DNA of 15,075 nucleotides. Origin: an uncultured archaeon. Lineage in GTDB: Archaea; Asgardarchaeota; Thorarchaeia; Thorarchaeales; Thorarchaeaceae. How positions within the stretch are numbered: the stretch's first letter is position 1; each line of letters begins with the position of its first letter. The notes beneath the pieces are model-generated. The model was given only the letters and a program-made list of their open reading frames with translations. It had not been told where the DNA came from and searched no databases. This document shows positions 443 to 15,075 of the stretch, one piece after another. The stretch is taken from assembly GCA_964458565.1 (NCBI GenBank), contig CAYWJO010000003.1, forward strand, positions 142,775-157,849. Direction: 5' to 3'. The translations under genes and the position numbers were made by a program.

Positions 443-1555
443 ATGCCATCAGGTGCCTTTGTTGTTCATTGGGATGATTTCCAGGGATTACTTGTAAAGA
501 AACGGTATCCCGACTCATTGAGATTGAATGAGAAGAGTCTGAATCTCATCTATTACGAGCACCAACAGGGCGGAGAGATTGGTCTACGAAATCTGAAAGT
601 AGATACACTGAATCTCGCTTCATTCACGCACAAGAATTATCCTGGATGGATTGTGTGTTTTGTACTTGGAGAAGGTGAAGATTACAAAGTCAATGAAAAA
701 CTACTCTCGGGAATGGGAAGATTCATCGTAGAGCTCATTAATGTCGAACCAGACCTAGTGGACATTCAAGAAATACTTGATGATGAGATAATTCTGGCAG
801 AACTTGAAGAGGAGCAAAAACTTGCTACCATTTTCATAACACCATCTGCAGCTATACTCTTAGAAAAAATGCAACAGGAAGGAGTAGAAAAGGCGGCAAA
901 ACTTTCGATGTGGTTAAAGAATCAAACACAGACAGAAGGTTTAGATATAAGAGAAGTAGCTGCTCCATTATTGGAGTCCGGAGTTTTGAAAGTTGAACGA
1001 ATCGGTAAGACTACTGAAGCTGTATTTCTAGTCAAAGATGTCTTCTTCTATCGTTCCCCGCCTGTGGAAGCAATAAAATATTCATTGCAGACCATGCCAC
1101 CTATTGCTGAAGAATACATTGAATATGTCACGAATTTCTTCTCACCACCCCCTCCGAACAAAGGATACAATCCTACAATCCCAGATGATGATCCTAACTC
1201 CCCATTAGTAGAAGATAGAGAAAAGACATCGGCATTATTAGCAAATAGCTTCCACTACCAGATTCTTAATGTGCTTCGTGCCCGACCGATGACTGTAGCA
1301 GAAATTGCAGACGTCACGAATCTACCAAATGAACTTGTGCAAAAGGTCTTATGGTCACTTGAATCGAATAAGGTCACAGTTAGCCTTAAGGGAACAGAAC
1401 ACTGGGCATTAGCTACAAATCCAACATTGGAATCATTCATGCCAGAATATGTCCTACCGATAATATCAAGAAAAGTTCAACAAAAAGAGATTACAGCAGA
1501 AACAGCAACCAGATATCTCGAAATTCTTATTCAGAATTGGGGAGAGAAGAAGTGA
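443..1555 (+). CDS. Longin/uDENN-like N-terminal domain plus probable tandem winged-helix domains (NPRL2/NPRL3-like architecture)
   Basis: GGAG RBS at 432-435. The N-terminus AFVVHWDDFQGLLVKKRYP matches the uDENN/longin start pattern (hhhxFDxxxGPxhxxxYP). Clear C-terminal wHTH YQILNVLRARPMTVAEIADVTNLPNELVQKVLWSLESNKV. Probable central degenerate wHTH at about aa 130-200. Confidence 0.65.
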   Translation: MPSGAFVVHWDDFQGLLVKKRYPDSLRLNEKSLNLIYYEHQQGGEIGLRNLKVDTLNLASFTHKNYPGWIVCFVLGEGEDYKVNEKLLSGMGRFIVELINVEPDLVDIQEILDDEIILAELEEEQKLATIFITPSAAILLEKMQQEGVEKAAKLSMWLKNQTQTEGLDIREVAAPLLESGVLKVERIGKTTEAVFLVKDVFFYRSPPVEAIKYSLQTMPPIAEEYIEYVTNFFSPPPPNKGYNPTIPDDDPNSPLVEDREKTSALLANSFHYQILNVLRARPMTVAEIADVTNLPNELVQKVLWSLESNKVTVSLKGTEHWALATNPTLESFMPEYVLPIISRKVQQKEITAETATRYLEILIQNWGEKK

Positions 1556-2412
1556 TTAGAAGCGTATACATACTTGGACAGCAGAGCAATCTTGTGTATA
1601 GTAAAGAGTACGCACAGATTGAGTCAAAGAATAGTCTGATTGAATACCTTGTCAACCTTACTCAATTTCTTAATAATATAGACCTTGAGGGAAAGATTGA
1701 ATATATGAATCTGGCCGGCACTCGTATTTTCTATAAGGTTGTTCCAGATTACACATTCATTTTCGTTGCTGACAAAGCGGATGATACTGAACAAATAGAG
1801 GAGAAAGTTGACCAACTAGTCGATGTGTTTCTACGTGAATTTGGACATCTTGCTTCTTCAGGCCAACCCTTGGAAGGTTTCGATGTTAAAGTAGACGAGA
1901 TTGCTGTAACGATGGTTAAAGTAGCAATCCTTGGATTTGCCGGTGTAGGAAAGACAACTACCTTACACCTTCTTCGTGGTGAAACCTTACCGCTTATACA
2001 CGATCCAACAATTGGTGTAAGCATTAAGAAATTGCCTGAGGAAGTCGAAAATGCTAACATAGTGCTTTGGGATTTAGCTGGACAATCACGCTTCTCAATA
2101 CTCTGGGCAAAAATGATTGCGAATGCGCAAGTTGTTATTATAGTAACAGACAGTACTCTTGAGAATGTTCTGCGTAGTAAGAAACTTGTCACTCTTGTAA
2201 AGGAAGAAGTACCGGATGCAAAAGTGATTGGTATTGCCAATAAACAAGATTTACCTACTGCGTTGACGCCAGAACGTGTGGGACAGATTCTGAATATTCC
2301 TACATATGAATTGGTTGCGATTGATATCTCGTATCGAGATAGACTCATACAAATAATCCGCAAAGCAATTCTTGAAGGCAAGGCTGAAGCAAAACCACCT
2401 CCAACAACATAG
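1552..2412 (+). CDS. Longin domain - Arf-like small GTPase fusion
   Basis: Start re-assigned to GTG 1552 (GTGA overlap with the upstream stop; GGAGA at 1541-1545), giving MIRSVYIL..., a typical longin beta1. GTPase motifs: G1 GFAGVGKTT, G2 PTIG, G3 WDLAGQ, G4 ANKQDLP. Arf-like features include PTIG, RFSILW, IIVTDS and NKQDLPxA. G5 is atypical (ELVAID). Confidence 0.88.
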   Translation: MIRSVYILGQQSNLVYSKEYAQIESKNSLIEYLVNLTQFLNNIDLEGKIEYMNLAGTRIFYKVVPDYTFIFVADKADDTEQIEEKVDQLVDVFLREFGHLASSGQPLEGFDVKVDEIAVTMVKVAILGFAGVGKTTTLHLLRGETLPLIHDPTIGVSIKKLPEEVENANIVLWDLAGQSRFSILWAKMIANAQVVIIVTDSTLENVLRSKKLVTLVKEEVPDAKVIGIANKQDLPTALTPERVGQILNIPTYELVAIDISYRDRLIQIIRKAILEGKAEAKPPPTT

Positions 2413-2520
2413 TAGCATATGGAAATGAGCATTTTCATTAATACATCCATTACGACAAAGTCTAAAAACATCAAATAGCAGATTCTAGATAGAATAGGGG
2501 CTAAACCTAGGTGACAAATC

Positions 2521-3111
2521 ATGTCCTTTGATATTGCAGAAATGATGGAAAAATTAAAAGAAATAGAAGGCTTCGCAACGAAGGTTGGTGAAACGAAGCG
2601 ATTAGCAGATGAATTGGCAATGAACTTTGCCAGGATGAAGGAAGCGATTAACAAGACAATAAATGAGAGCTTCGCTGAGATTGCTAATCAAATTGACACA
2701 CTCAGGAAGAATATGGAACAGATGGAGTCTGTGCAAACATCAGCCCCAAAAGTGACGACTCCGGCGCCTGAGCCTACACCTGAGACCACACATTCACCAG
2801 AGCCGACGCCGGAGCCTGTAGTTACTCCAGAGCCTACACCAACACCTGAACCCACACCTACTCCGGTACCAGAACCAACCCCACAGCCAGTAGCCACACC
2901 TGAACCCGTTGTTACTGATACTCCGACTGGGGAGGGTAGTGATCAAATGGACTTCTTATTACAACAGAAAGACAGACTAAAAGCAGCATTGACTGATCTT
3001 AGATTTGATTATATGAGAGGTTACATTCCAGAAGAAGACTACAAGGCAAGGGAATCAGAGCTCGACACTCAGCTTGAGGATTTGGACAAACAGATTGCTG
3101 CTCTGAAGTGA
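2521..3111 (+). CDS. Coiled-coil protein with Pro/Thr/Glu linker and C-terminal SHOCT-like helical hairpin
   Basis: GGTGA RBS 6 nt before the ATG. Heptad-rich N-terminal ~70 aa, (PEPT/PTPE)n linker, C-terminal LTDLRFDYMRGYIPEEDYKARESEL. Confidence 0.75.
   Translation: MSFDIAEMMEKLKEIEGFATKVGETKRLADELAMNFARMKEAINKTINESFAEIANQIDTLRKNMEQMESVQTSAPKVTTPAPEPTPETTHSPEPTPEPVVTPEPTPTPEPTPTPVPEPTPQPVATPEPVVTDTPTGEGSDQMDFLLQQKDRLKAALTDLRFDYMRGYIPEEDYKARESELDTQLEDLDKQIAALK
2755..2928 (+). repeat. Coding low-complexity PEPT/PT repeat
   Basis: Encodes TTPAPEPTPETTHSPEPTPEPVVTPEPTPTPEPTPTPVPEPTPQPVATPEPVVTDTPT. Synonymous codons are diverged. Confidence 0.85.
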
Positions 3112-3131: not shown

Positions 3132-3176
3132 TCTGGGCACATAGTAAATGTGCCCGGACTCTCATTTCTTTTTATT
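3132..3176 (+). terminator. Hairpin plus U-rich terminator of the longin/GTPase cluster
   Basis: GGGCACAT(3135-3142)-AGTAA-ATGTGCCC(3148-3155), extendable by 3 pairs, followed by TTTCTTTTTATT. An A-rich tract at about 3189-3203 gives a U-tract for the convergent gene. Confidence 0.7.
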
Positions 3177-3217: not shown

Positions 3218-4165
3218 CTACTTCAATAGCTCTTGAGCCGCCTTGATAATTTCTTTTGCTTTATCTTCTGAAATACCAGAAACTTTCTCAGCTATCTTGG
3301 CGGAGTCAGCTTTAGATATCTTCAATACAGTTTTGAACCCGGCTTCCGCTAGCTTTTCTTCAGTCGCAGATCCAACACCAGGAAGATCTGATACCAGTGG
3401 TTTGGTTGTTTTGGTAGCCTTCGGTTTAGTTTCCTTTTTCACCTCAGGTTTCTTCTCTGGAATTTTCTCAGTGGATTTCTTCGTGTCCGTAGGAGGTGTA
3501 TCTTTCTTCTTTTCCACTGTCTTCTTGGTTGACTTCTTCCCTGGTTTTGGTGGTTCTTCTATCTTTGCAGGGGTAGTCTTCTCTGGTTTTGGTTTGGGTT
3601 TGGGTCTTGGTTTGAGCTCAGGTTTGACGTCTAAAGCATCCAGCCTTTCGTCATCATCTCGTTCTGGTGCCTTTTCTAAGGGTTCAATAACAACTTCAGG
3701 ACGACGGTCTTTTGCTTTCTCTTTCCTTTCACCGGTTTCTCTTCGTTTTCTCGCGAGTCGACTTGGTTTCACAGAGGTCATACTCGCTGCAGCAAGTAAA
3801 GCAGTGTCGATTTCCTCAGTGATTACAGATTCTTCAGGAACGGAGGATGCTACTTCTTCAAGAACATCAGCAATCATGATAGGTGATTTACTCTCACGCT
3901 TCTTAAGTTCAGAAGGTGTTGTATAAACTACAAATTTACTTTCACGGATGTAGGGCACAACCTGCCCACGTTCTTCATTCTCTTTGAGGATTTGCCGGGC
4001 AACACTCAGCCTAATACCAAATTTATTGGCCAACTCATATGGTGTCACAGATCTAGCTTTAGATAGATACTCACCGATTTCTTCTGAAACTTCGGGCTTG
4101 ACGACAGCGTCTCTGATTGTCTTCTCAGTTTTAGCTGTTGTCTTGCCCCATTTCTTACGACTGAT
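3218..4165 (-). CDS. rps25e: Ribosomal protein eS25 domain with long charged/Pro-rich extension and C-terminal helix-hairpin-helix domain
   Basis: The frame stays open upstream of the track start (4048): SRKKWGKTTAKTEKTIRDAVVKPEVSEEIGEYLSKARSVTPYELANKFGIRLSVARQILKENEERGQV...FVVYT fits the eS25 pattern (KKW.K; TP..la....I..S.AR..L; V.YT). The C-terminus LVSDLPGVGSATEEKLAEAGF...VSGISEDKAKEII is a tandem HhH. The start (ATC 4165, or ATT 4171) is inferred from AGGAGAG at 4174-4180. Confidence 0.85.
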   Translation of the reverse strand: MSRKKWGKTTAKTEKTIRDAVVKPEVSEEIGEYLSKARSVTPYELANKFGIRLSVARQILKENEERGQVVPYIRESKFVVYTTPSELKKRESKSPIMIADVLEEVASSVPEESVITEEIDTALLAAASMTSVKPSRLARKRRETGERKEKAKDRRPEVVIEPLEKAPERDDDERLDALDVKPELKPRPKPKPKPEKTTPAKIEEPPKPGKKSTKKTVEKKKDTPPTDTKKSTEKIPEKKPEVKKETKPKATKTTKPLVSDLPGVGSATEEKLAEAGFKTVLKISKADSAKIAEKVSGISEDKAKEIIKAAQELLK

Positions 4166-4371: not shown

Positions 4372-5652
4372 CTACTTCTTTTTTGGAGTTATCTTCAATT
4401 TCTGTTCTATCATTACTTCGCTATCAGGTGGAATATTCTCGCTGATGACACATCCCGGAGAAATTGTCGAATTCTCTCCAACACGAGTTGCAGGATAGAG
4501 CGATGAATTCACACCAATAATAACACAGTCTCCAATTACCGCGCCAAATTTCTCCATTGGGATCTGAACTCGAGTATCATCATAACAAATGTAAATAGGT
4601 TCTTTCCCAGGACGCCAATTCCAAAGCTGAGCTCCTGCCTCGATACAAGTATCTGCACCAACTATTGAGTCTCCGACATATGTCATCCTTCCAACATTCA
4701 CGTTGGAGAAAAACATACTATTACGAATTTCAACGGAATAACCAATGCGAACATTGTTACTCAGACTAGCGTATTCCCGAATAAGAGAATTATTCCCAAT
4801 ATACACATCCCTACCTAGATACAGAGGACCACGGAGTGTAGTATTAGGTCGAATAATGCAACCCTCATCAATATGAACAGGACCTTCAAGAACCACACTA
4901 TCATGAATCTGAGCAGACTCAGCAATGTATGTGCCCTTGCCTCGCAACCTACGGTCCATAACAATATGATTTGCCTTTAGTAGGTCCCACGGCCATGTGA
5001 ATTCAGCCCATTCTTTCTCCCATACTGTTGCTGCAATTTTCTTCTTGTCTGCAATCATGTGCTCATATGCAGATTCCATTGTTTTATGCTTCTCGAGATA
5101 TTGGAGAACCTCTGAGTTGAATATAGATACACCTGCCACTGCATAGTTACTGATGTATCTCTCAGGTCCTCCTTTTTCAACTAGTCTTTCTACGAGCCCA
5201 CCTGTACCAATCTTCACAGTTCCAAATTGCTCAGGATTTGATACAAGTGTGACAAGCATCGTAACGAAACCATCCATTGTGTGGTGATTCTCAAGAGTCC
5301 TCGAAACCATATCGGATTCTACAAGAACATCACCGTTAACAAGAAGAAATTCCTCGTCATTTTCAAGCTCATCTCGTGCTAATAGAATGGCATTTTCTGC
5401 ACCTTTCTGTTCATGTTGAATAACATAACGTATTCTAGTATCATGATCAGCACCATGCTGAAAATGCTCAATCAACTCCTCCCGACCATGTCCGGCAACC
5501 ACAACGATATCATGGATTCCATTCGCCTTAAGACTCTCAAGGATATATTCCAGAACAGGATGTCCTGCAATCATTAACATTGATTTTGATCGATTAGCGG
5601 TTATTGGACGAAGTCGCTTCCCTTCACCAGCTGTTAGTACTAGAGCCTTCAT
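4372..5652 (-). CDS. Archaeal GlmU-like sugar-phosphate nucleotidyltransferase with left-handed beta-helix domain (divergent active-site motifs)
   Basis: Start re-assigned to ATG 5652 (MKALVLTAGEGKRLRPIT..K). Contains VNGD, VEK, PWDLL, hexapeptide repeats, YVGDS and KFGAVIGD. Confidence 0.88.
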   Translation of the reverse strand: MKALVLTAGEGKRLRPITANRSKSMLMIAGHPVLEYILESLKANGIHDIVVVAGHGREELIEHFQHGADHDTRIRYVIQHEQKGAENAILLARDELENDEEFLLVNGDVLVESDMVSRTLENHHTMDGFVTMLVTLVSNPEQFGTVKIGTGGLVERLVEKGGPERYISNYAVAGVSIFNSEVLQYLEKHKTMESAYEHMIADKKKIAATVWEKEWAEFTWPWDLLKANHIVMDRRLRGKGTYIAESAQIHDSVVLEGPVHIDEGCIIRPNTTLRGPLYLGRDVYIGNNSLIREYASLSNNVRIGYSVEIRNSMFFSNVNVGRMTYVGDSIVGADTCIEAGAQLWNWRPGKEPIYICYDDTRVQIPMEKFGAVIGDCVIIGVNSSLYPATRVGENSTISPGCVISENIPPDSEVMIEQKLKITPKKK

Positions 5653-5705
5653 ATCAGACACACAATCATGGAATCCTCGGATACCAATAAAACTGTTGTT
5701 TCGGT

Positions 5706-6434
5706 TCAAACTTTGTCTAGTTTGAAATAAATTCGTCTTTTTCCAGAACCAACATTCTTTGTTTTTCCAATTCTGATTAATCCAATTTCAGAAGTACTTG
5801 AAACATGTGTCCCTGCGCAAGATGCAGCATCATAGTCACCTATTATCAAAACACGAAACGTTTTAACCGAGGTAGGAACCATCTCGAGGTATCGCTTTTG
5901 ATAACCCCATTTGGTCAGGAATCGGATGGCTTCATCTCGTGGCATAAAGCGAATGTCGACATTGAGATTCCGAGTGATGATATCATTGACTCCATTCTCA
6001 ACCTCTCGCTTCATCTCCTCACTGATTTCCTCAATGGGGGTATAATCAGCTCGGCTCTCTCCTGGTTTTATCATATTCCCTACTGTTTCTAATTCATAAT
6101 GAATCTGAAGATAACGTGACAGAATGTGTTGAGCAGTATGAAACCGCATGCATTCATATCTGAAATCCCAATCGAGTATTCCATGTATTGAATCACCAAT
6201 CTCGATAGTGGACACATCATCGATCAGATGTTTTACTACGTCGTTATCTTTGATGGTGTTTTTCACAGGATAAATCAAGCCATCTTTCTCAATATTACCA
6301 CAATCCCCACTCTGACCGCCTCCTTCAGGATAAAATGAAGTTCTATCCAAAACCACGTAGCCTTCTTCTATATCAACAATCTTAGCATCAAATTCACGAA
6401 GATAGTTATCTTGCATAAATAGAAGGTCAGTCAT
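5706..6434 (-). CDS. alaX: Free-standing alanyl-tRNA editing protein, AlaX-M type
   Basis: LDRTSFYPEGGGQxxD, Zn-binding HxxxH (HTAQH) and CxxxH (CAGTH); 242 aa; GGTGA/GGAG RBS. Confidence 0.92.
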   Translation of the reverse strand: MTDLLFMQDNYLREFDAKIVDIEEGYVVLDRTSFYPEGGGQSGDCGNIEKDGLIYPVKNTIKDNDVVKHLIDDVSTIEIGDSIHGILDWDFRYECMRFHTAQHILSRYLQIHYELETVGNMIKPGESRADYTPIEEISEEMKREVENGVNDIITRNLNVDIRFMPRDEAIRFLTKWGYQKRYLEMVPTSVKTFRVLIIGDYDAASCAGTHVSSTSEIGLIRIGKTKNVGSGKRRIYFKLDKV

Positions 6435-6445
6435 TCTCCAATCAC

Positions 6446-6871
6446 CTAATCAGTTGCAGATTCTCTCATTCGCTTCCATTCCTCCACGGCTAGATCCTTA
6501 GCTAATTCCAGAGATTCTCCTGATAGACTAACATCACGAGTATCTGCAGCAGCGTCAATGATTTCTCTGATAGATTGTTCATCATCCTCTTCTTGGAGTC
6601 CTGTTAGGATTGCGGATATGATATCATTAGAGATTCCGTGCTCTGAAAGCATCTGTGCTAGTGGAGTATAAGATATTGGAATGAATCCCGAATCTGTAGA
6701 AGGCGTTAGATCTAATGCCTCCATTTTTTCTGTGAAAATCTCAGTGATGATTTCTTGTCGCGATCGAACGACAGGTGCGTCAGGAACTCGTCCCTTTTCT
6801 GCAGATGAAAACATCTTCTTCAACTGCTTTCCAATCTGAGATTTCTTGGGTTTCTTACCTCGACGAAACAT
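6446..6871 (-). CDS. Hypothetical protein, basic N-terminus and acidic helical C-terminus
   Basis: Open frame ending 11 nt before alaX. The start is probably ATG 6871 (MFRRGKK), after a GGTG RBS. Confidence 0.7.
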   Translation of the reverse strand: MFRRGKKPKKSQIGKQLKKMFSSAEKGRVPDAPVVRSRQEIITEIFTEKMEALDLTPSTDSGFIPISYTPLAQMLSEHGISNDIISAILTGLQEEDDEQSIREIIDAAADTRDVSLSGESLELAKDLAVEEWKRMRESATD

Positions 6872-7078
6872 TACAACACCGGCCACTAATGCAACTTTTT
6901 TTGGTAGTATCATGAATATTTATGATTCCAATGGATTTGATATTATCTCTACATATCGTTTCCACAATATCCATATAGGAACACAAACACTCCGGGGATG
7001 GTTCTCATAGTGCAAAGGTCACTTTAAGGTTTCTCCGAGAGCCCCAAAATCAATATCACCTATTTGTGAGATGGCGTT

Positions 7079-7855
7079 ATGAAGAAAAGAAAGGATGTCT
7101 TAGAGGCGCTCTCAAGAGGAAAAATTAACATTGAAGAAGCAGAGGTCTTGCTAAATAAAATGACTCTTGAGCAAATAGACGAACTTGCAGTGATAGATTA
7201 TGATCGCGAGGAAAGAAGCGGTATTCCCGAAGTAGTAATGGCGGGAACAAAAGAAAACATGCAGATAGTAAGTATAGTCAGATCAATTGTTGAGAGAAAA
7301 GGTATCGCATTGATAACCAGAGCGATTGAGAATCAAACTGAATTTCTAACGAAAAACCTTGTTGACTATGAGTTTGAAGTGTCAGGTTCAAAAAGCCATC
7401 AAACAATCTTGGTTAAGTCAAAGGAATGGAAAGAACCAGAGACAAATGGATGCATTGCAATATTAACAGCAGGCACCTCAGATATTATTTTCGCAAATGA
7501 AGTTGAAGGTGTAGCAAAACTGATGGGTGTGGAGTATCTAACCTATTATGATGTGGGAGTCGCTGGGATGCATCGACTCCTCGAACCACTAAAGGAAATC
7601 CGAGAGAAGGATGTTGATGCAATAGTTGTTCTTGCAGGAATGGAAGGTGCCTTACCCACTCTTGTTGCATCCCTTTTAGATATTCCAGTTATTGGTGTCC
7701 CAATTCCAGTTGGGTACGGATATGGCGGTAATGGAGAAACCGCGCTTGCATCAATGCTACAGTCATGTGCTCCAGGACTTTCCGTAATGAATATTGGAAA
7801 TGGATTCGGAGCTGGTGCATTTGCTTGTCTTATAGCAAAAAGACGTACGAAATGA
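7079..7855 (+). CDS. larB: Nickel-pincer cofactor biosynthesis protein LarB (PurE-like)
   Basis: D..REERSGIPEVV...K, TAGTSD, DVGVAGMHRL, AGMEGALPTLVASL, IGVP..VGYG, ML.SCAPGLSV.NI.NGFGA. Confidence 0.9.
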   Translation: MKKRKDVLEALSRGKINIEEAEVLLNKMTLEQIDELAVIDYDREERSGIPEVVMAGTKENMQIVSIVRSIVERKGIALITRAIENQTEFLTKNLVDYEFEVSGSKSHQTILVKSKEWKEPETNGCIAILTAGTSDIIFANEVEGVAKLMGVEYLTYYDVGVAGMHRLLEPLKEIREKDVDAIVVLAGMEGALPTLVASLLDIPVIGVPIPVGYGYGGNGETALASMLQSCAPGLSVMNIGNGFGAGAFACLIAKRRTK

Positions 7856-7858
7856 CAT

Positions 7859-8992
7859 TCAGATATTATCAAAATATGTTGCAATTCCTAAATAGACGTC
7901 TACAGATTTGTAAAGCTGGTCAAGTGAGATGAATTCATTTGGCTGATGTGCCTGTTCGATAGATCCTGGTCCACAAATAACATTGATAATCCCGATTTTT
8001 GGTTGCAATACACTACAATCAGTTCCAAAGGTAGCGGCGGTTGGAATTGGGCGTTTCCCCGTAATAGCTTCTACGTATTTGAGACTCACATCAACAATTT
8101 GTGAATCACGTGGAGTGATAACTGCTGGTTTTCCGTGAATATATTCTACCTTAGCACTCTTTCCAAGTCCAGCAGTATCTAGTAATTTATTCATTGTTTT
8201 GAGTAGACTATCTATATCCTGGCCTTTGACGATTCTCATATCCAGAAGAACCTCACAATAATCAGGCACGACATTGATTTTAATACCACCAGATATCATT
8301 CCAATATTCAGTGTTGGATTTCCAAGGAGCTCATCAACCTCATATGGAAAGTCTGTATCAATGATTGTTTTTAGAGCTTCAATGCAGATGCTAATGGCAT
8401 TGATGCCCTCCTCTGGTCTCGACCCGTGTGCAGCCTTTCCCGTAGCAACTATCTTAGACCAGAACATACCTTTCTCACCCACTAAGACATCGAGATTTGT
8501 AGGTTCAGCACATACTCCAAAATCTATTCCTTGAAGAAGTCCGCTCTTAGCAACGTTTTCCGCTCCGCTACAACCACTCTCCTCGTCAGATGTTGCTAAC
8601 ATGACGAGTGGGGTGTTATTTCCCTGCTCTTTGTATTGAATCATGGTTTCAACCAAGGCAGTAACTGGACCTTTCATATCGCAAGACCCTCGACCATATA
8701 TTTTACCATTGTCAACTACGCCCCCGAATGGATCATAATCCCATAGTTCTCTAGGACCTGTTGGTACAGTATCCATATGCCCGTGTAATACTAGTTTTGC
8801 AGTCTTCTTTGGATGAGTGTAAAATATCAAATTTGGGCGGTCGTCTGGACCAACGGAATCATAGGTAAAACCGTATTCTGTCATATGCTCAATGAGAACA
8901 TCAGCAACATCTCTCTCATAACCAGGTGGACTCTCTGAATCAGTAGCTATGAGTTGTTTCAGTAGCTTCAACATTCTTCTCTCATCAACCAT
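7859..8992 (-). CDS. M20 family metallopeptidase/deacylase (ArgE/DapE-like)
   Basis: HGHMDTVP, GRGSCDMKG, DEESG, EPT, AHGS, NVVP, GTD, GPG, AHQPNE. Start is likely ATG 8992, after GGTG. Confidence 0.92.
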   Translation of the reverse strand: MVDERRMLKLLKQLIATDSESPPGYERDVADVLIEHMTEYGFTYDSVGPDDRPNLIFYTHPKKTAKLVLHGHMDTVPTGPRELWDYDPFGGVVDNGKIYGRGSCDMKGPVTALVETMIQYKEQGNNTPLVMLATSDEESGCSGAENVAKSGLLQGIDFGVCAEPTNLDVLVGEKGMFWSKIVATGKAAHGSRPEEGINAISICIEALKTIIDTDFPYEVDELLGNPTLNIGMISGGIKINVVPDYCEVLLDMRIVKGQDIDSLLKTMNKLLDTAGLGKSAKVEYIHGKPAVITPRDSQIVDVSLKYVEAITGKRPIPTAATFGTDCSVLQPKIGIINVICGPGSIEQAHQPNEFISLDQLYKSVDVYLGIATYFDNI

Positions 8993-9085
8993 ATTAACAC
9001 CATGAGAATCAGTATGAATCCTCGCTATGAAGGTTATCATTGAACTTATCGAACAGCTTCATAAGTGAGCATGAGAATAGTTAGT

Positions 9086-9162
9086 TGGCAGATCAATGAG
9101 GCCGTTACCCCTGTCTGAGCTTTCTTGGCGATGACGACCTAAGAGCAGTCTGAGGTCTGCCA
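9086..9162 (+). ncRNA. Dual-guide box C/D sRNA
   Basis: 9-bp terminal stem TGGCAGATC(9086-9094)/GGTCTGCCA(9154-9162). Box C ATGAGGC 9096-9102, 12-nt guide, D' CTGA 9115-9118, short internal hairpin, C' ATGACGA 9131-9137, 12-nt guide, D CTGA 9150-9153. Both motifs have K-turn geometry (3-nt bulge plus tandem GA). Confidence 0.85.
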
Positions 9163-9203
9163 CTCTTAGTCTTGAAAGAAGAAAAGAAAGATGGCAACCA
9201 TAT

Positions 9204-10199
9204 TCAAACTATACCATGGATATATTCTCGAATTTTCTTGTAGACGTTTTCTGTTTCATCAGGATCATAATTGGAGAGAATAATGATTGTGGTTATCAGC
9301 TCGTAGCTCTTATCCATAAAAGATGCCACTCCAGATGCACCACCAGCAATGACCCATCCTGGAAGATCCCTTTTTTCTGTATTAGAAATTGGTCTGAATA
9401 CCATCTCAGAATATTTTGGAGAAAGAAGCTTATGTTCATGAACAGCTATATCGAATTTCAGTAGATCATCAACTGTGGAATAACCTCCACCTGCAGGACT
9501 TCCCTTTGAACCTATCAAGAAAGTATTCTCTTTCCTCAAACCTCCACCAAGTTCCGGACAACAATTAAATTTTGTATATCCAATTGCCAGATTTGGTTCA
9601 GGATAGTCAAGCTCAAAATGATCCGTATCATTCATACCTGCTGGAATAAAGATATGCTCCCTTACAAAGTCGTAGTAATTCACTCCAGAAATAGCCTCTA
9701 TAATTTTACCAAGAACCACATAACTTGCATTGCTGTACTGCTTTCCTGTTCCTGGTTTGAAGAGTAAAGGATCTTCAATGAATAGTCCAATAAAATCATC
9801 GACACTTCTAAGGTTCCCAATCATACCCCAATATTTCTCATTGAAATAATCACCCAAACCTGAAGTGAATGAAATCAAATGGTGTATTGCGACATTTTCT
9901 GCAATATCCTTTGGGAAGTTTGGTAGGTACTTCCCCACAAAATCGTTTATGTCCAGTTTTCCTTGTTCCATCAATTTTAGAATGGAGGTCTTTGTGAATA
10001 TCTTATTTATTGACCCAAGATTAAATTTAGTATTTAATCTATTAGGAATATTATATCGTTTGCTTGCAAAACCATACGCTCTCTTGAATACAGGGATGTT
10101 GTCCCTCGCAATGAGAACAACTCCAGAAAATTGGTCATTCTCAACCTCATTTTCAATCAATTCGTGAAGTGCATCTGTATCGATTAGTGCAGCTGTCAT
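9204..10199 (-). CDS. Beta-lactamase-family (AmpC-like) serine hydrolase
   Basis: FSGVVLIA, FNLGSINK (SxxK), LISFTSGL, YSN (YxN), PAGM, PAGG.YST..DL. Start is likely ATG 10199, after GGTG. No signal peptide is evident. Confidence 0.9.
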   Translation of the reverse strand: MTAALIDTDALHELIENEVENDQFSGVVLIARDNIPVFKRAYGFASKRYNIPNRLNTKFNLGSINKIFTKTSILKLMEQGKLDINDFVGKYLPNFPKDIAENVAIHHLISFTSGLGDYFNEKYWGMIGNLRSVDDFIGLFIEDPLLFKPGTGKQYSNASYVVLGKIIEAISGVNYYDFVREHIFIPAGMNDTDHFELDYPEPNLAIGYTKFNCCPELGGGLRKENTFLIGSKGSPAGGGYSTVDDLLKFDIAVHEHKLLSPKYSEMVFRPISNTEKRDLPGWVIAGGASGVASFMDKSYELITTIIILSNYDPDETENVYKKIREYIHGIV

Positions 10200-10215
10200 T
10201 TTTACACCAACATTA

Positions 10216-10265
10216 ATTTCGATGGTATCGAAATAATTCGACCGCATCGTTTTTAAAGTTATGCG
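10216..10265. promoter_or_regulatory. Divergent promoter region: palindromic operator candidate plus symmetric TATA box
   Basis: ATTTCGAT-GGT-ATCGAAAT (10216-10234). TTTAAA at 10252-10257 is flanked by CGCAT (10243-10247) and ATGCG (10261-10265). Confidence 0.55.
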
Positions 10266-10286
10266 ATAGAGTAATGCCATCAGAAG

Positions 10287-10892
10287 GTGATTTTCATTCA
10301 GTCCAGTGATATATCAAAATCCGACAAAAAACCACTCAGGCTGATGGAGCTAGTTGTAGATCCTATTAGAGCGCAGATCTATTTTGAGGTGTTAGTACGA
10401 GGCGAAGTGACAGCACACAAACTAATGCAGGTCCTGCCCATAAATCGAAGCACTCTTACTCATCATCTTACTAAGTTCGTGGAAGCCGGGATTTTCATAG
10501 TTGATATTCCAGCTACTGGAAGACCTGTGAAATATTATCGATTAAATGAGGTATTTGAAGAAACCATAATAGTAGAGGGCATATCATCACATTCGGTGAA
10601 GGAACGCATCATGTTTTTAGAGTCAACTGCAACTCATTTGCATGTTGTAGCTGATTTAGCTAGAAGACTTGCGTCTCAACTTAAGGAGCATTCGAAACCA
10701 CTGAGTCAAATTGGCTTTATTTTTAATCTGATGACAAGAGAAGAGGTGGATATTTGGAATAAACATTATACAAAATTCATGGAAAATGTCAGTGAAGAAA
10801 TTAAAAAGAAAAAGTTAGAATTGAAGAAAAACAAAGAGTGTACACATGTTGCGTTTTCGGGATTTCTACCTATTATAAACACGGAGTCTTAG
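10287..10892 (+). CDS. ArsR-like winged-helix transcriptional regulator
   Basis: DPIRAQIYFEVL...TAHKL...INRSTLTHHLTKFVEAGI...GRPVKYYRL. Start codon uncertain. Confidence 0.85.
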   Translation: MIFIQSSDISKSDKKPLRLMELVVDPIRAQIYFEVLVRGEVTAHKLMQVLPINRSTLTHHLTKFVEAGIFIVDIPATGRPVKYYRLNEVFEETIIVEGISSHSVKERIMFLESTATHLHVVADLARRLASQLKEHSKPLSQIGFIFNLMTREEVDIWNKHYTKFMENVSEEIKKKKLELKKNKECTHVAFSGFLPIINTES

Positions 10893-10988
10893 AAATATTG
10901 AACTTTAACGATAGCTGGGTACCCATTATTCCCAATCAGTGAAATTCTTTTAGTAGTCATTCATATTGAAATTGTGGCTGTGCCTTGA

Positions 10989-11621
10989 ATGATGGATGAA
11001 TTAGTCAATGCATTGATTGAATTGGATGAAGACAGAGTTCTTCGTATTGTCGAGGAGAAACTAGAATCCGGCACAGACCCTATGATAGTTCTCGAATCAT
11101 GTAGAAGTGGCATGGAGGAGATTGGTGCAAGGTTTGAGAGAAATGAATATTTCCTAAGTGAATTGGCACTTGCAGGTGAAATGTTTAAACAAATTTCAAA
11201 TCTTATCTTACCAAGGATTGAGGGATATGCAGAGGAAAAAATAGGAACGGTCTTAATTGGGACTGTTGAGGGGGATATTCATGATATCGGTAAGAATATC
11301 GTAATTTTCATGCTCGAATCTAATGGATTTGAGGTTATTGACATAGGAGTAGATATTCCACCAAATGTCTTTGTAGAAAAAATAAAGGAACTAAAACCAG
11401 ATATTGTTGGGTTGAGTGGTCTCCTTACTGCAGCTTTTGAATCCATGAAAATAACTGTTGATGCAATTCGAGAAGCGGGTTTACTAGATAGTGTAAAGAT
11501 AATGATTGGTGGAGGGCAGTGCAATGAGGATGTACGCGCATTTACAGGGGCTCACGCATATGGTGAAACTGCAGTCGATGCTGTTAAATTATGTAAGAAA
11601 TGGATTCAAACTAGTAATTGA
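10989..11621 (+). CDS. Corrinoid (cobalamin-binding) protein, MtaC/MtbC/MttC-like
   Basis: N-terminal cap (GMEEIGARFE..EYFLSEL..AGE), DIHDIGKNIV (DxHxxG), SGLL, MIGG. Confidence 0.93.
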   Translation: MMDELVNALIELDEDRVLRIVEEKLESGTDPMIVLESCRSGMEEIGARFERNEYFLSELALAGEMFKQISNLILPRIEGYAEEKIGTVLIGTVEGDIHDIGKNIVIFMLESNGFEVIDIGVDIPPNVFVEKIKELKPDIVGLSGLLTAAFESMKITVDAIREAGLLDSVKIMIGGGQCNEDVRAFTGAHAYGETAVDAVKLCKKWIQTSN

Positions 11622-11736
11622 AAACCACACGGGTTGAAATCTTAATTTTCCAAACCGAGGTTTCATGTGAAAGAAGAAACCACATCAAAGATACCTGATA
11701 AGATAGCCATGAGTAAGTTTCGGGTAATAGAATGGA

Positions 11737-11753
11737 GAGGGGATATTCCCCTC
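11737..11753 (-). terminator. Perfect 7-bp hairpin downstream of the small minus-strand ORF
   Basis: GAGGGGA-TAT-TCCCCTC, 21 nt after the stop at 11775, followed by pyrimidine-rich sequence on the minus strand. Confidence 0.5.
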
Positions 11754-11774
11754 AAAACAACACGCGAGAATCAA

Positions 11775-11957
11775 TTAGGGGTCGGTGAGGATTAGACCAT
11801 TTCGCCGCATTATGACCCTGTACGACCTACCGACATCATCCTCAACCTCGACCTGATCGTTCTTCAGAAACTTCTTCACAGCCCTCTTCATGTCGGTCGA
11901 AGGTAGGTCTCTGAAGCGTATGATACAGGTCTCTGTCATTTTAGGAGTCTCCATCAC
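11775..11957 (-). CDS. Small hypothetical protein (54-60 aa)
   Basis: Protein-like composition, upstream TTTATATA (12042-12049, minus) and a downstream hairpin. The alternative start ATG 11939 has GGAGA upstream. Confidence 0.55.
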   Translation of the reverse strand: MMETPKMTETCIIRFRDLPSTDMKRAVKKFLKNDQVEVEDDVGRSYRVIMRRNGLILTDP

Positions 11958-12182
11958 AACGTGCTAAGAAGTAAGGCACGGCAGTGGTGGCGCGGCAAAC
12001 CTGAAAGGAGTGCACGACATGGTGTCATATGAAGTCTTGAATATATAAAGAACAAGCTGACTTGAAATGGTTCTGGAAGCGATATTATCTCACTTTTGGT
12101 ATGCCTAGTTATTTATGATTTGTTCAGGATGATAATGGCACACACTCCATGAATATGGCCTTAACAAATGGTCAACCTATTT

Positions 12183-12410
12183 CTACACAGACAGCCAGAC
12201 ATTTGTATAATACGCACAGAGTTCAATGTCAATCATGGGATGTTCTTCCGGAGCACCCACCTCGTAGTTGTAGTCGTCAGAGGCCCAACCATTATTCACT
12301 ATGTAGGCTGTTGGCACTAAATCGATATAATCCCTGAGCGTTCCTCTAAGTAAGTTTACATGGAGGTCCATTTGATTGAGGTAAAAAAATATATCATTCT
12401 TCTCCAACAA
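12183..12410 (-). pseudogene. Possible small ORF or gene remnant
   Basis: 75 codons from a TTG start with protein-like acidic composition. A GGAGGT upstream is not spaced for this start, and a TAA closes the frame 5 codons upstream. Confidence 0.25.
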
Positions 12411-12659
12411 ACCACTTTTACCAGGTTAATACCTCCGTTTCATTCCTAAACATGATGGTTCATCCCACACGTGCACTCAATCTAAAGATAAAAAGTTATT
12501 ATTCTAAATGAGGAATACATGATGAAAAGAGATTGGTATTTTCTAATACATGGATGAACATTCTCAAAGATTAATCTGATAAAATGTATAAATCTTTGAA
12601 TCCGTTAGGTCACATCAATAATTATAAACACTTCAGATGTAATATATTTTGGGGTGTTG

Positions 12660-12803
12660 GAAAATTAGAGATTCCAGTGAAATTGAAGGCTGTTATTAGG
12701 ATGTTAAAGGAAAAATCTGAGAAGACTGAGCGTGAACGTCTGGAGATTCTGGTAGACGAACGCACTAAGGACCTCAAGCAGTAAATCAAAGAAGGAAAAA
12801 AAC
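12660..12803 (+). pseudogene. Disrupted former N-terminal segment of the downstream histidine kinase
   Basis: [21 protein letters not shown].. is a typical signalling helix. It is separated from the kinase frame by TAA (12782-12784) and one extra base in or near the A7 run (12796-12802). Confidence 0.6.
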
Positions 12804-13940
12804 GTGGTTGATGCACTCACAGAGAGTGAGAGTCGTTACCGTCTCTTGTTCGAGGACTCTGCGCTTTCACTATGGGTTGAAGATTTCTCAAAGGCTAAAG
12901 AGTTTATGAATAATCTAAAATCATCTGGTGTCAAGGGTTTACGAAAATATTTTGAGGAAAACCAAGAGGCGCTCCTTCGTTGTGTTAGTCTGGTCCAGGT
13001 GCTCGACGTAAATCGTGCCACTATGACTCTACATGGAGTACAAAATAAGAAAGAGATGTTGGGTTCTTTAGATAAGATTCTGTCAGATGACGCTTTATCT
13101 GTATTTCTTGATCAACTCTTGGCATTGAATTATGGGAATCTACCTTATGAGAGTGAGATTGAAGAAATGATGGTGTTGGGGGAGAAGAAAGCACTAGTTC
13201 TCCAACTTACTGTCCCACCTCAATATAGTGAGTCTTTAAAGAGAGTATTTCTAACAATTATCGATGCTACTGAACGGAAGAAGGCAGAGGATGAAATTAG
13301 ATCTTCACTTGCTGAGAAGGAATTTCTTCTCAAAGAAATTCATCACCGTGTCAAGAATAACCTCCAAATCATCTCGAGCCTTCTCTTCCTTCAAGCCCAG
13401 AAGAGCCAGATACCAGAGATTGTCAATTCACTCAAAGAGAGTGAGCATCGTATAAAGTCCATGGCGCTGATACATGAATTACTCTACGAGTCGAAAGATC
13501 TAGCAAAGATTGACTTTGAAAGATACATGAAGAGTCTAGGAGAATACTTGCTAAGTTCATTTGGAATGAATACAAGTGATATAGCATTGAAGATTGATGT
13601 CATCTGTGGTACAATTAGTATTGATATTGCTATTCCTTGTGCTTTAATCGTCAATGAGTTGGTATCTAATGCTATGAAGTATGCCTTTCCAGGTAACAGA
13701 CCTGGTGAGATTGAAATCAGTCTGAAGGCTCTTGGAAATGATGAACTTGAGTTGGCAGTGAGTGATAATGGTGTGGGATTACCTGCTAATCCTATACCAA
13801 AACGAGGTGAAACACTGGGTATACAGTTGGTCACTAATCTGGTTGAAAGACAACTAAAAGGGACATTGGAAGTGGATGTGGGCACGAGAACAAGATATGT
13901 AATTCGATTCAAGAATATTGGAGGCCGAAGTGATGAGTGA
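12804..13940 (+). CDS. Cytoplasmic PAS - HisKA_2 sensor histidine kinase
   Basis: [18 protein letters not shown] ending DATERK, H-box [48 protein letters not shown]. Confidence 0.93.
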
Positions 13941-15075
13941 TTCCTTCAGTGTTATGCTTGTTGAAGATGAAGCGATTGTTGCAATGGAGATTGAGGAGAG
14001 ATTAAAAATCCTTGGTTACGAAGTTATTGCATCGGTTGCATCCGGTGAGGAAGCGATTGAAATAGCATCAAAACTACGACCTGAAGTAATACTAATGGAT
14101 ATTAGATTGAAGGGGTCGATAGATGGAATCCAAGCAGCTAATTTAATCTCTAGAGAATGTGGCATTCCTGTGATTTTTATCACAGCTTATTCAGATGATG
14201 ATACATTGAAACAAGCGCGGGCTTCCTCACCATACGGATACCTGGTAAAACCATTCAAAGAGAGAGATCTTCACGCCACAATTCAGATTGCAAAACAAAG
14301 GTTTGAAAATGATCAAATTCTGATTGGTCGTGAAGAGCAGTTCAGATTGTTCTTTGAAAATGCTCCGATTTATTGTTATTTAGTGTCATTAGATGGTAAT
14401 ATTCTAGATGTGAGCGATAATGCAATTCATGCAATGGGGTATAACAAGGAGGAAATAATCGGAAAACCTCTAACTATGATATTTGCTCATGAATCTATGC
14501 TTATCGCTGAATCTTATTTTTCAAACCAGGAGAATATTGGATCTCAAGAAGAAACGGAGGCGATTCTTGCCACAGCTGATGGATCAAGGAGAACGGTTAT
14601 GATGTGTTCCAACCTTGTGGAAACACCAGATGGAAGACAATCTTACTGGATAATCTTACTTAGGGACATAACCGAACGTAAAGTTGCTGAGAAAGCGCTT
14701 TATGAGAGTGAAAAGAAATATCGAACACTTGTCGAGTCAATGCAAGACCTCGTCTTTGTCTATGATGAGAATGAATGCTACTCTCAGTATTATGCTGCCA
14801 TTGATCATCTGCTATATTCACCGCCAGGAGTATTCATGGGAAAGCACATTTCTGATGTATTGCCTAAAGAAGTAGGTGAAGAACTAATAGACCGTATCAG
14901 GAAGGTGAGGAAGAGTGGGGAGAGTGAGAGATATGATTACCCCTTAGAAGTCAAAGGCACGAATTATTGGTTTTCAACGATTATAAGTCTACACGAAGAT
15001 GGAAAGAGTATAGTATCTGTTGTAAGAGATATTACACAACGTAAAATAACAGAGGGAAAGCTTAACAAAAGCTAC
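13933..15075 (+). CDS. Partial (runs off right edge) receiver-PAS-PAS signalling protein
   Basis: Not in the ORF track because there is no stop in the window. [13 protein letters not shown]...[12 protein letters not shown]...PVIFITAY...GYLVKPF is an intact REC domain, followed by two PAS/PAC units ending RDITERK and RDITQRK. Overlaps the kinase stop; GGAGG RBS at 13920-13924. Confidence 0.93.

Follow-up and report, generated by a model that had tools for sequence, protein, structure and literature searches.

The window studied here, a 15,075-nt stretch on contig C3 of a 3.7-Mb, 93%-complete Thorarchaeota (Asgard) assembly, carries a conserved operon of three genes, which we term g1, g2 and g3. 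The first gene encodes a longin domain followed by winged helices, the second a longin fused to an Arf-family GTPase, and the third a small protein with helical regions. The first two genes are translationally coupled, and their pairing is conserved throughout Thorarchaeota and recurs in paralogous copies and in other Asgard classes. The nearest proteins in the databases likewise all come from Thorarchaeota. We give an even chance to the possibility that g1, g2 and probably g3 form one cytoplasmic small-GTPase switch module, which would be paired through its longins and in which g1 would serve as a non-catalytic platform or adaptor. The individual parts, namely longin-Arf fusions and NPRL2-like Thorarchaeota proteins, are already known, and the operon is a variation on the theme of a longin platform combined with a small GTPase. 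Positions below are those of the window unless a locus handle precedes them.

Gene organization of the operon

All three genes lie on the same strand (Table 1). The sequence GGGAGAG is located directly upstream of the GTG start of g2, and the hairpin that follows g3 (3132-3158) has a folding energy of -21 kcal/mol, with a z of -4.1 against shuffled sequence. Orthologous loci were found by scanning one genome per species with the Pro-rich segment of g1 as the search pattern, which returned 60 Thorarchaeota-type loci. In 51/51 orthologous Thorarchaeota loci, the g1 stop either shares 4 or 8 nt with the start of g2 or lies 1-2 nt from it, and therefore the coupling does not reflect chance. Moreover, the order g1-g2-g3 is kept, with g3 downstream of g2, in every Thorarchaeota locus that has enough downstream DNA, and g1 orthologues are present in 84/85 genomes of the same family.

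Table 1. Features of the g1-g2-g3 operon (window positions; gene limits from open reading frame calls; aa, amino acids).
Feature	Position	Strand	Description
g1	443-1555	+	370 aa, acidic; N-terminal longin, middle winged helix, C-terminal ArsR-like winged helix
g1 longin domain	443-799	+	aa 1-119; topology of the AlphaFold2 model, structural search
g1 Pro-rich segment	1136-1222	+	FFSPPPPxKGYNPT...DDPNSPxxEDRE; invariant columns
g1 C-terminal ArsR/SmtB-type winged helix	1196-1447	+	aa 252-335; acidic
GTGA overlap	1552-1555	+	g2 start GTG and g1 stop TGA; translational coupling
g2	1552-2412	+	286 aa, GTG start; longin fused to Arf-family GTPase
g2 longin domain	1552-1917	+	aa 1-122; SNARE / sigma-adaptin type
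g2 Arf-like G domain	1915-2361	+	Pfam Arf, PDB Arl1/Arf1 matches, motifs
g3	2521-3111	+	196 aa; helical region, Pro/Thr/Glu-rich linker, helical-hairpin motif
Hairpin and T-rich run	3132-3176	+	11-bp stem (3132-3142 / 3148-3158); between convergent g3 and eS25-HhH (helix-hairpin-helix) genes

Domain architecture of g1 and g2

In the AlphaFold2 (AF2) model of g1 (predicted local distance difference test (pLDDT) 87, predicted template modelling score (pTM) 0.84), residues 1-119 adopt the topology beta-beta-alpha-beta-beta-beta-alpha, i.e., a longin fold. An exhaustive structural search returned the NPRL2 longin as the best match of this domain (VIA Z 10.5-10.7, root-mean-square deviation (rmsd) 2.8-3.0, 118 residues), and the Lokiarchaeota longin 8yqg was also top-ranking (VIA Z 10.3), with 114-118 residues aligned over the two. 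Yeast SEA subunits, Lst4, DENND1, FLCN/FNIP2, and the longins of TRAPP and SNARE proteins followed at lower rank. As well, chains of NPRL3 and NPRL2 led a Foldseek search with the whole of g1, although by marginal scores only (E 8e-4, TM about 0.2). Invariant columns in the g1 longin alignment include D11, G15, R21, P23, G90, and R93.

Residues 120-235 of g1, a region barely probed by the fold search, show winged-helix-like secondary structure in the AF2 model, while residues 252-335 match ArsR/SmtB winged helices, such as CzrA (VIA Z 9.8, 84 residues aligned). Matches of g1 to Pfam helix-turn-helix (HTH) families are all weak and under the cut-offs. The Pro-rich segment is the most conserved stretch of g1, has pLDDT values of 53-74 at residues 231-260, and may be a linear segment that binds a partner. 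In a protein-language-model atlas, g1 led to Thorarchaeota/Promethearchaeota clusters only, and g3 to nothing usable.

The N-terminal 122 residues of g2 form a canonical longin, which matches Sec22b with a VIA Z of 15.3 over 120 residues (rmsd 2.4), and longins fill each of the 50 top rows of the search. Among them, VAMP7, sigma-adaptins and zeta-COP score Z 12.6-14.7, and Foldseek returned sigma2-adaptin at an E of 4e-6. The following residues, 122-270, pass the Pfam Arf threshold (E 1e-19, 71.1 bits against a cut-off of 22.3), and the best PDB matches are all Arf/Arl proteins (Arl1/Arf1, E 1e-16 to 1e-14), with Arl1 as the best solved relative (E 4e-16). The P-loop GFAGVGKTT (1933-1959), the switch-1 motif PTIG, the motif WDLAGQ (DLAGQ at 2071-2085), which includes the equivalent of Arf1 Q71, and NKQD (2239-2250) are all present. 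The protein thus carries the Arf-family G1, G3 and G4 signatures (GxxxxGKT, WDxxGQ, NKxD), and its G5 motif is atypical (VAID). The N-terminal amphipathic helix by which Arf proteins link their nucleotide state to membrane binding is absent from the g2 sequence (a 120-aa longin stands there instead), as are Gly2 and a C-terminal lipidation motif. Nor does g2 have the layout of a Rag/Gtr protein: its Gtr1_RagA score of 18.1 bits lies under the cut-off of 22, and the extra domain is an N-terminal longin, not a C-terminal roadblock for dimerisation.

The AF2 model of g2 is of low confidence in the G domain (pLDDT 41-58 at residues 121-190), and the alignment of this domain is nearly invariant. 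Identity of g2 across Thorarchaeota loci is 70-83%; the G domain is about 95% identical across all sampled Thorarchaeota, with hardly any residue between 115 and 277 that varies. The other domains are far less conserved, at 57% identity for the g2 longin and 42-56% for the g1 domains. Such identity of the G domain is an unusually strong constraint for an archaeal small GTPase, as would be expected for a surface with several partners.

A preliminary description of this DNA had proposed that a GTGA overlap couples two longin-containing genes, the first running on into winged helices and the second into an Arf-like GTPase, and that a third co-oriented gene is followed by a hairpin terminator. The results above bear out the overlap and its coupling, both sets of domain calls, and the 11-bp hairpin with its T-rich run after g3. 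A survey of synteny across Asgard genomes likewise found the pair conserved, as described below, and the support for the domain calls, the coupling and the conservation of the pair is stronger than is visible from the window alone.

Recurrence of the g1-g2 pair

Outside Thorarchaeota, a Jordarchaeaceae contig (L064) encodes g1, a 282-aa longin-Arf protein, and a 107-aa coiled-coil protein. Genome G117 (L085/L069) also has the trio, and G115 (L086/L070) has the g1-g2 pair; in G004 the g1/Arf pair is divergently oriented, and in G143 a g1-like gene is followed by a longin with a degenerate GTPase.

The genome of the window itself possesses two further g1-like genes, on contigs C2 and C17. On C2, the g1-like gene is followed after 0.5 kb by a gene for a protein of 395 aa that joins an N-terminal extension of 120 aa to an Arf domain and is the best paralogue of the g2 G domain in this genome. 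On C17, the stop of the g1-like gene overlaps the start of a gene for a protein of 2423 aa (L066:3079-10350), which bears a signal peptide as well as a C-proximal transmembrane helix; a 293-aa longin-Arf protein and two coiled-coil proteins are encoded next. All three g1 paralogues of this genome therefore lie within 8 kb of a gene for an N-terminally extended Arf-like protein, and only about six such Arf-like GTPase genes score E < 1e-20 in the 3.7 Mb. No protein in which g1 and the GTPase are fused was found among 150 representatives of the g1 family. The tree of the g1 family and that of the neighbouring GTPases both contain a Thorarchaeota clade and a Jordarchaeia-like clade (the Jordarchaeaceae contig, G117 and G115); this agreement carries no evidential weight because both trees are unresolved at depth.

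Association of the g1 family with giant surface proteins

A profile search collected 188 representative proteins of the g1 family, whose named members come from Odin-, Jord-, Hod-, Njord-, and Lokiarchaeia. The family occurs in 302/400 Asgard genomes, often in several copies, and is nearly absent from some Asgard families (f8, 1/31; f10, 0/12; f11, 1/22). Nine of the representatives are fusions, in which a large ectodomain, with LamG and immunoglobulin-like domains where detectable, is followed by one transmembrane helix, a conserved juxtamembrane linker of about 100 aa, and a cytoplasmic C-terminal g1 module.

Neighbourhoods were sampled at 10 loci around g1-like genes in five non-Thorarchaeota genomes, four of them single-contig assemblies. 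In eight of these loci the g1-like gene abuts, and often overlaps, a gene for a protein of 870-1610 aa with a C-proximal transmembrane helix, and five of the eight neighbours also show an N-terminal hydrophobic segment. A (K/R)IPxF(V/I)KK-like juxtamembrane motif directly after the transmembrane helix is common to these neighbours, to the fused forms, and to the C17 protein. Outside Thorarchaeota, the g1 family thus usually adjoins giant single-pass surface proteins or is fused to them as their cytoplasmic tail. This link is the strongest contextual lead that we obtained, and it was absent from the preliminary description. A search of the window's own genome for giant proteins with the (K/R)IPxF(V/I)K motif found none besides the C17 protein, and hence no such partner in trans for the window operon.

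Several cytoplasmic tails of the giant proteins (L087-L094 and C17) end in G-L-I-T-E-E-E-like helical motifs, which recall the C-terminal motif of g3. As well, contig C61 of the same genome encodes a 311-aa protein (L067:2220-3155) that combines a g1-type longin (hidden Markov model (HMM) E 4e-7) with a TackOD1 two-component output domain with zinc ribbons.

Proposed function and alternative explanations

Coupled translation would supply g1 and g2 in a fixed proportion, and the two proteins quite probably bind each other, since their translational coupling is strict and the pairing is repeated in paralogues and in other classes. The contact would most plausibly run through their two dissimilar longin domains, and the Arf-like G domain of g2 would be held beside a longin platform, as GTPases are on MglB, Ragulator, TRAPP, Mon1-Ccz1, and GATOR1. 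According to previous studies, the characterised longin/roadblock regulators are dimers that seat the GTPase (Levine 2013, PMC3747258; Tran 2024, PMC10933270), and by analogy a longin-longin pair that seats the tethered G domain may be present here, with slightly less than an even chance. Judged from its sequence, g1 looks like a non-catalytic NPRL3/FNIP-type half, a GEF (guanine nucleotide exchange factor)-type platform, or a scaffold. We favour the first of these roles, in which g1 would act as an NPRL3/FNIP-like platform and adaptor half and not as an arginine-finger GTPase-activating protein (GAP), and g1 may also influence the nucleotide cycle of g2. Contacts to other proteins would be made by both acidic winged helices and the invariant Pro-rich segment of g1, and by the tethered g3 hairpin.

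The preliminary description had proposed the logic of GATOR1 or C9orf72-SMCR8, which our results do not sustain as far as an arginine-finger GAP is concerned. A previous study showed that GAP-type longins (NPRL2, FLCN, SMCR8, C9orf72) carry a GP motif at the beta1-beta2 loop or the start of beta2 and linked Heimdallarchaeia GP-motif longins to eukaryotic GAP longins (PMC12290439). In our alignments, g1 has the invariant G15 at this place, followed by F or L and never by P, and g2 has G/S-N. A conserved Arg in the beta4-beta5 loop was found in neither the g1 nor the g2 longin alignment, and Pfam NPR2 gave no match to g1 at E <= 1 and none anywhere in the genome. Since the Pro of the GP motif, the beta4-beta5 Arg and the NPR2 match are all absent, the arginine-finger GAP reading is unsupported. 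Invariant Arg residues are present elsewhere (R21 and R93 in g1, R3 and R58 in g2), and placing them against a bound G domain needs a model of the complex.

These absences also weigh against a longin-paired switch module, as do the following observations. When compared profile to profile, the longins of g1 and g2 show no homology, and therefore they are not a paralogous pair like NPRL2/NPRL3. The Lokiarchaeota longin 8yqg is a homodimer by its title, and self-pairing of g2 is thus conceivable. In the window's own genome, a fourth longin-Arf paralogue stands without a g1 gene beside it, and many g1-like genes in other Asgard archaea have no GTPase within about 9 kb. Finally, a relationship of g3 to the small coiled-coil proteins beside g1/g2 in Jordarchaeia, in Hodarchaeota and on C17 is at most a lead: BLAST and HMM searches give E-values of 0.001-0.002 only, and hhalign lends no support. 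Prediction of a complex between full-length g1 and the g2 longin (residues 1-121) with row-paired alignments gave an ipSAE of 0.00 in both runs, which were made without controls and speak neither for nor against binding. A 349-aa protein encoded upstream of the unlinked longin-Arf paralogue was considered as a divergent g1 and rejected, as it is an asparaginase.

Alternatively, g2 might homodimerise through its longin to give a Rag-like pair of G domains, with g1 as a nucleotide-dependent effector or scaffold that attaches to the G domain or to some other surface and neither forms a longin heterodimer with g2 nor controls the nucleotide cycle. This arrangement, which we regard as doubtful, is consistent with the crystallised homodimer of 8yqg, with the lack of a detectable relationship between the two longins, and with the missing GAP signatures of g1, and the near-invariant G domain of g2 fits recognition by an effector. 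However, a strict 1:1 coupling in 51/51 loci is more typical of obligate subunits, and it is established that every characterised NPRL2-like longin protein works as a longin heterodimer (PMC12290439).

It is unlikely that g1, g2 and g3 are merely co-regulated neighbours with independent functions and no physical complex. Longin-Arf fusions have been reported to be common in Asgard archaea (PMC4917890, PMC11914678), and the paralogue that stands apart from any g1 gene agrees with such independence; the overlap kept in all 51 loci and the recurrence of the pairing in paralogous copies and other classes argue against it.

The winged helices raise the question of DNA binding, and the operon would be a GTPase-controlled gene switch if g1 were an ArsR-type regulator whose longin sensed the state of g2. 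The match of the C-terminal domain to ArsR/SmtB repressors (Z 9.8), the C17 paralogue, which passes the Pfam HTH_20 and HTH_5 cut-offs, and the naming of homologues as such regulators in some databases point in this direction. However, the protein of the window stays under the cut-offs of all Pfam HTH families, and it has a net charge of -17, with pI (isoelectric point) values of about 4.8-4.9 for both winged helices; protein contacts are therefore favoured over DNA contacts. Across the family, the C-terminal winged helix has a median pI of 4.85 and is net negative, and the consensus places Glu in the wing and at the start of the recognition helix. Moreover, the same module occurs on the membrane-anchored tails of giant surface proteins. 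Because of the acidic charge and the membrane-tethered fusions, DNA binding by g1 is unlikely, and the gene switch as a whole is very unlikely.

Finally, a targeting receptor like SR-alpha(SRX)/SR-beta, the two subunits of the signal recognition particle (SRP) receptor, in which an Arf-like GTPase binds a longin effector at the membrane, is most improbable: the SRX-SR-beta complex 1nrj is among the fold matches of g1 (SRX, Z 7.9) and g2 has a weak Pfam SRPRB match, but this match stops at 18.8 bits where the cut-off is 25, and the NPRL2-type longins rank far above SRX. Moreover, a transmembrane anchor is missing from g2, and an SRP-type NG domain from g1.

Under the preferred reading of a longin-paired module with g1 as its platform, the wider family gives a hint of what the switch may serve. 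In general, the family probably serves to link proteins of the membrane or cell surface with a GTPase switch, because the g1 module is found mainly as the partner or fused tail of giant surface proteins, and it would connect their cytoplasmic side with the switch. In a more specific and tentative form, the g1 module might be a cytoplasmic signalling or sorting domain of these proteins that works with longin-fused Arf-like GTPases. The window operon, which has no giant surface protein in cis, might then be a soluble derivative, with g3 supplying a tethered, tail-like hairpin.

Comparison with known systems

Similar to GATOR1 (NPRL2-NPRL3), and also to FLCN-FNIP and C9orf72-SMCR8, g1 consists of a longin followed by compact domains, and its gene is genomically tied to an Arf/Rag-like GTPase. 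Its longin is structurally closest to that of NPRL2, with Lst4, FLCN/FNIP2 and SEA subunits also ranking high; this likeness is established for the longin only. Unlike GATOR1-type proteins, g1 has no Pfam NPR2 match, no Pro of the GP motif and no conserved Arg in the beta4-beta5 loop. In addition, the longin that presumably partners g1 is part of the same chain as the GTPase, and a third subunit like DEPDC5 is lacking. The missing GP motif also sets g1 apart from the GP-motif longins of Heimdallarchaeia (PMC12290439).

The protein g2 is one of the Asgard longin-Arf fusions (Arf-like / AArf / ArfR). Five such fusions were reported in Lokiarchaeum in 2016 (PMC4917890), longin N-termini were noted in the AArf clade (PMC11914678), and longin-GTPase architectures were listed by Tran 2024 (PMC10933270). 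The native regulators of AArf were stated to be unknown (PMC11914678). In MK-D1, GTPase genes do not as a rule share operons with genes for longin or roadblock proteins, and GTPase-regulator pairs are hard to predict since they are not in operons (PMC10933270). Unlike the fusions in these papers, for which no partner or operon was described, g2 has a conserved and translationally coupled candidate partner.

Liu et al. (10.1101/2020.10.19.343400) described, in the accessible part of their report, a family with an NPRL2-like longin and a C-terminal domain in most Thorarchaeota and a few Lokiarchaeota metagenome-assembled genomes, as well as NPRL2-like longins fused to two-component domains. The g1 protein probably belongs to this family, and the g1-type longin with TackOD1 on C61 matches the two-component fusions. 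However, that part of the report mentions no adjacent Arf-like GTPase, third gene, or giant membrane proteins.

MglA-MglB, Rag-Ragulator, TRAPP, and Mon1-Ccz1 share the general logic, in which a small GTPase sits on a dimer of longin/roadblock domains that determines its nucleotide state. In these systems, however, the GTPase is a separate chain or, in the Rags, lies N-terminal to a fused roadblock, whereas in g2 the longin precedes the G domain, and winged helices are present in the partner g1. As for the small and medium subunits of AP/COPI and their partner Arf1, the g2 longin matches sigma-adaptins and zeta-COP (Z 12.6-13.9), and the family context of Arf proteins, longin proteins and cytoplasmic tails of membrane proteins recalls cargo adaptors. 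However, no adaptin trunk or appendage domains are encoded nearby, and the likeness is one of fold only.

The preliminary description had also held that no characterised module of this composition is known. This holds for the literature that we searched, in which we found neither the operon nor its third gene described, nor the near invariance of the G domain, nor any association of the g1 family with giant membrane proteins; it does not extend to the longin-Arf fusions and the NPRL2-like proteins, each of which had been noted before. Asgard Arf-family GTPases have been shown to behave as membrane-associating switches. For one such GTPase under very strong constraint, the locus offers a conserved and translationally coupled candidate partner in the form of an NPRL2-like longin protein. 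It also adds another candidate subunit, g3, and, at the level of the family, a connection with giant transmembrane proteins of the cell surface. Because the module is made up of only three proteins, all small and soluble, their binding and stoichiometry, any GAP/GEF activity and their structure are directly testable in vitro. The locus is thus relevant to the wiring of longin platforms and Arf switches prior to eukaryogenesis. If the surface-protein reading is true, the family would represent a prokaryotic system of surface receptor or cargo tail, longin platform and Arf switch, and Arf-type GTPases would have been coupled to membrane-protein tails via longin adaptors before eukaryotes arose.

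The third gene and flanking genes

The g3 protein consists of a conserved helical N-terminal part (residues 1-72), a variable Pro/Thr/Glu-rich linker (about residues 73-139), and an invariant C-terminal helical-hairpin motif, LTDLRFDYMRGYIPE..YK. Its matches to the Pfam CdvA and GvpG coiled-coil families are weak and under the cut-offs. In a subset of Thorarchaeota lineages (L056, L022, L053, L057, L004, L055), a co-oriented extra gene lies between g2 and g3. The product of the one at L056:6971-7816 is 281 aa long, starts with a zinc-ribbon-like CxxC...CxxC region and contains several hydrophobic segments, which hints at a possible membrane link of the operon. The small coiled-coil proteins of Jordarchaeia (L064:5961-6284) and Hodarchaeota (L062:5094-5411) start with MG and an amphipathic stretch (MGLINKVVSFFKGLLGG, MGIWGRIKSWFGSRF). 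These starts recall the N-terminal helix of Arf and are absent from Thorarchaeota g3.

The convergent gene on the 3' side of g3 (3218-4048, minus strand) encodes an eS25 ribosomal-protein domain with a C-terminal helix-hairpin-helix, and its place after g3 is kept in most Thorarchaeota loci. The remainder of the window (4372-15075) holds ordinary genes, including those for a GlmU-like nucleotidyltransferase, an AlaX-like editing protein, an AIR carboxylase-like protein, an M20 peptidase, a beta-lactamase-fold protein, an ArsR-type HTH protein, a B12-binding protein, and a HisKA_2 histidine kinase.

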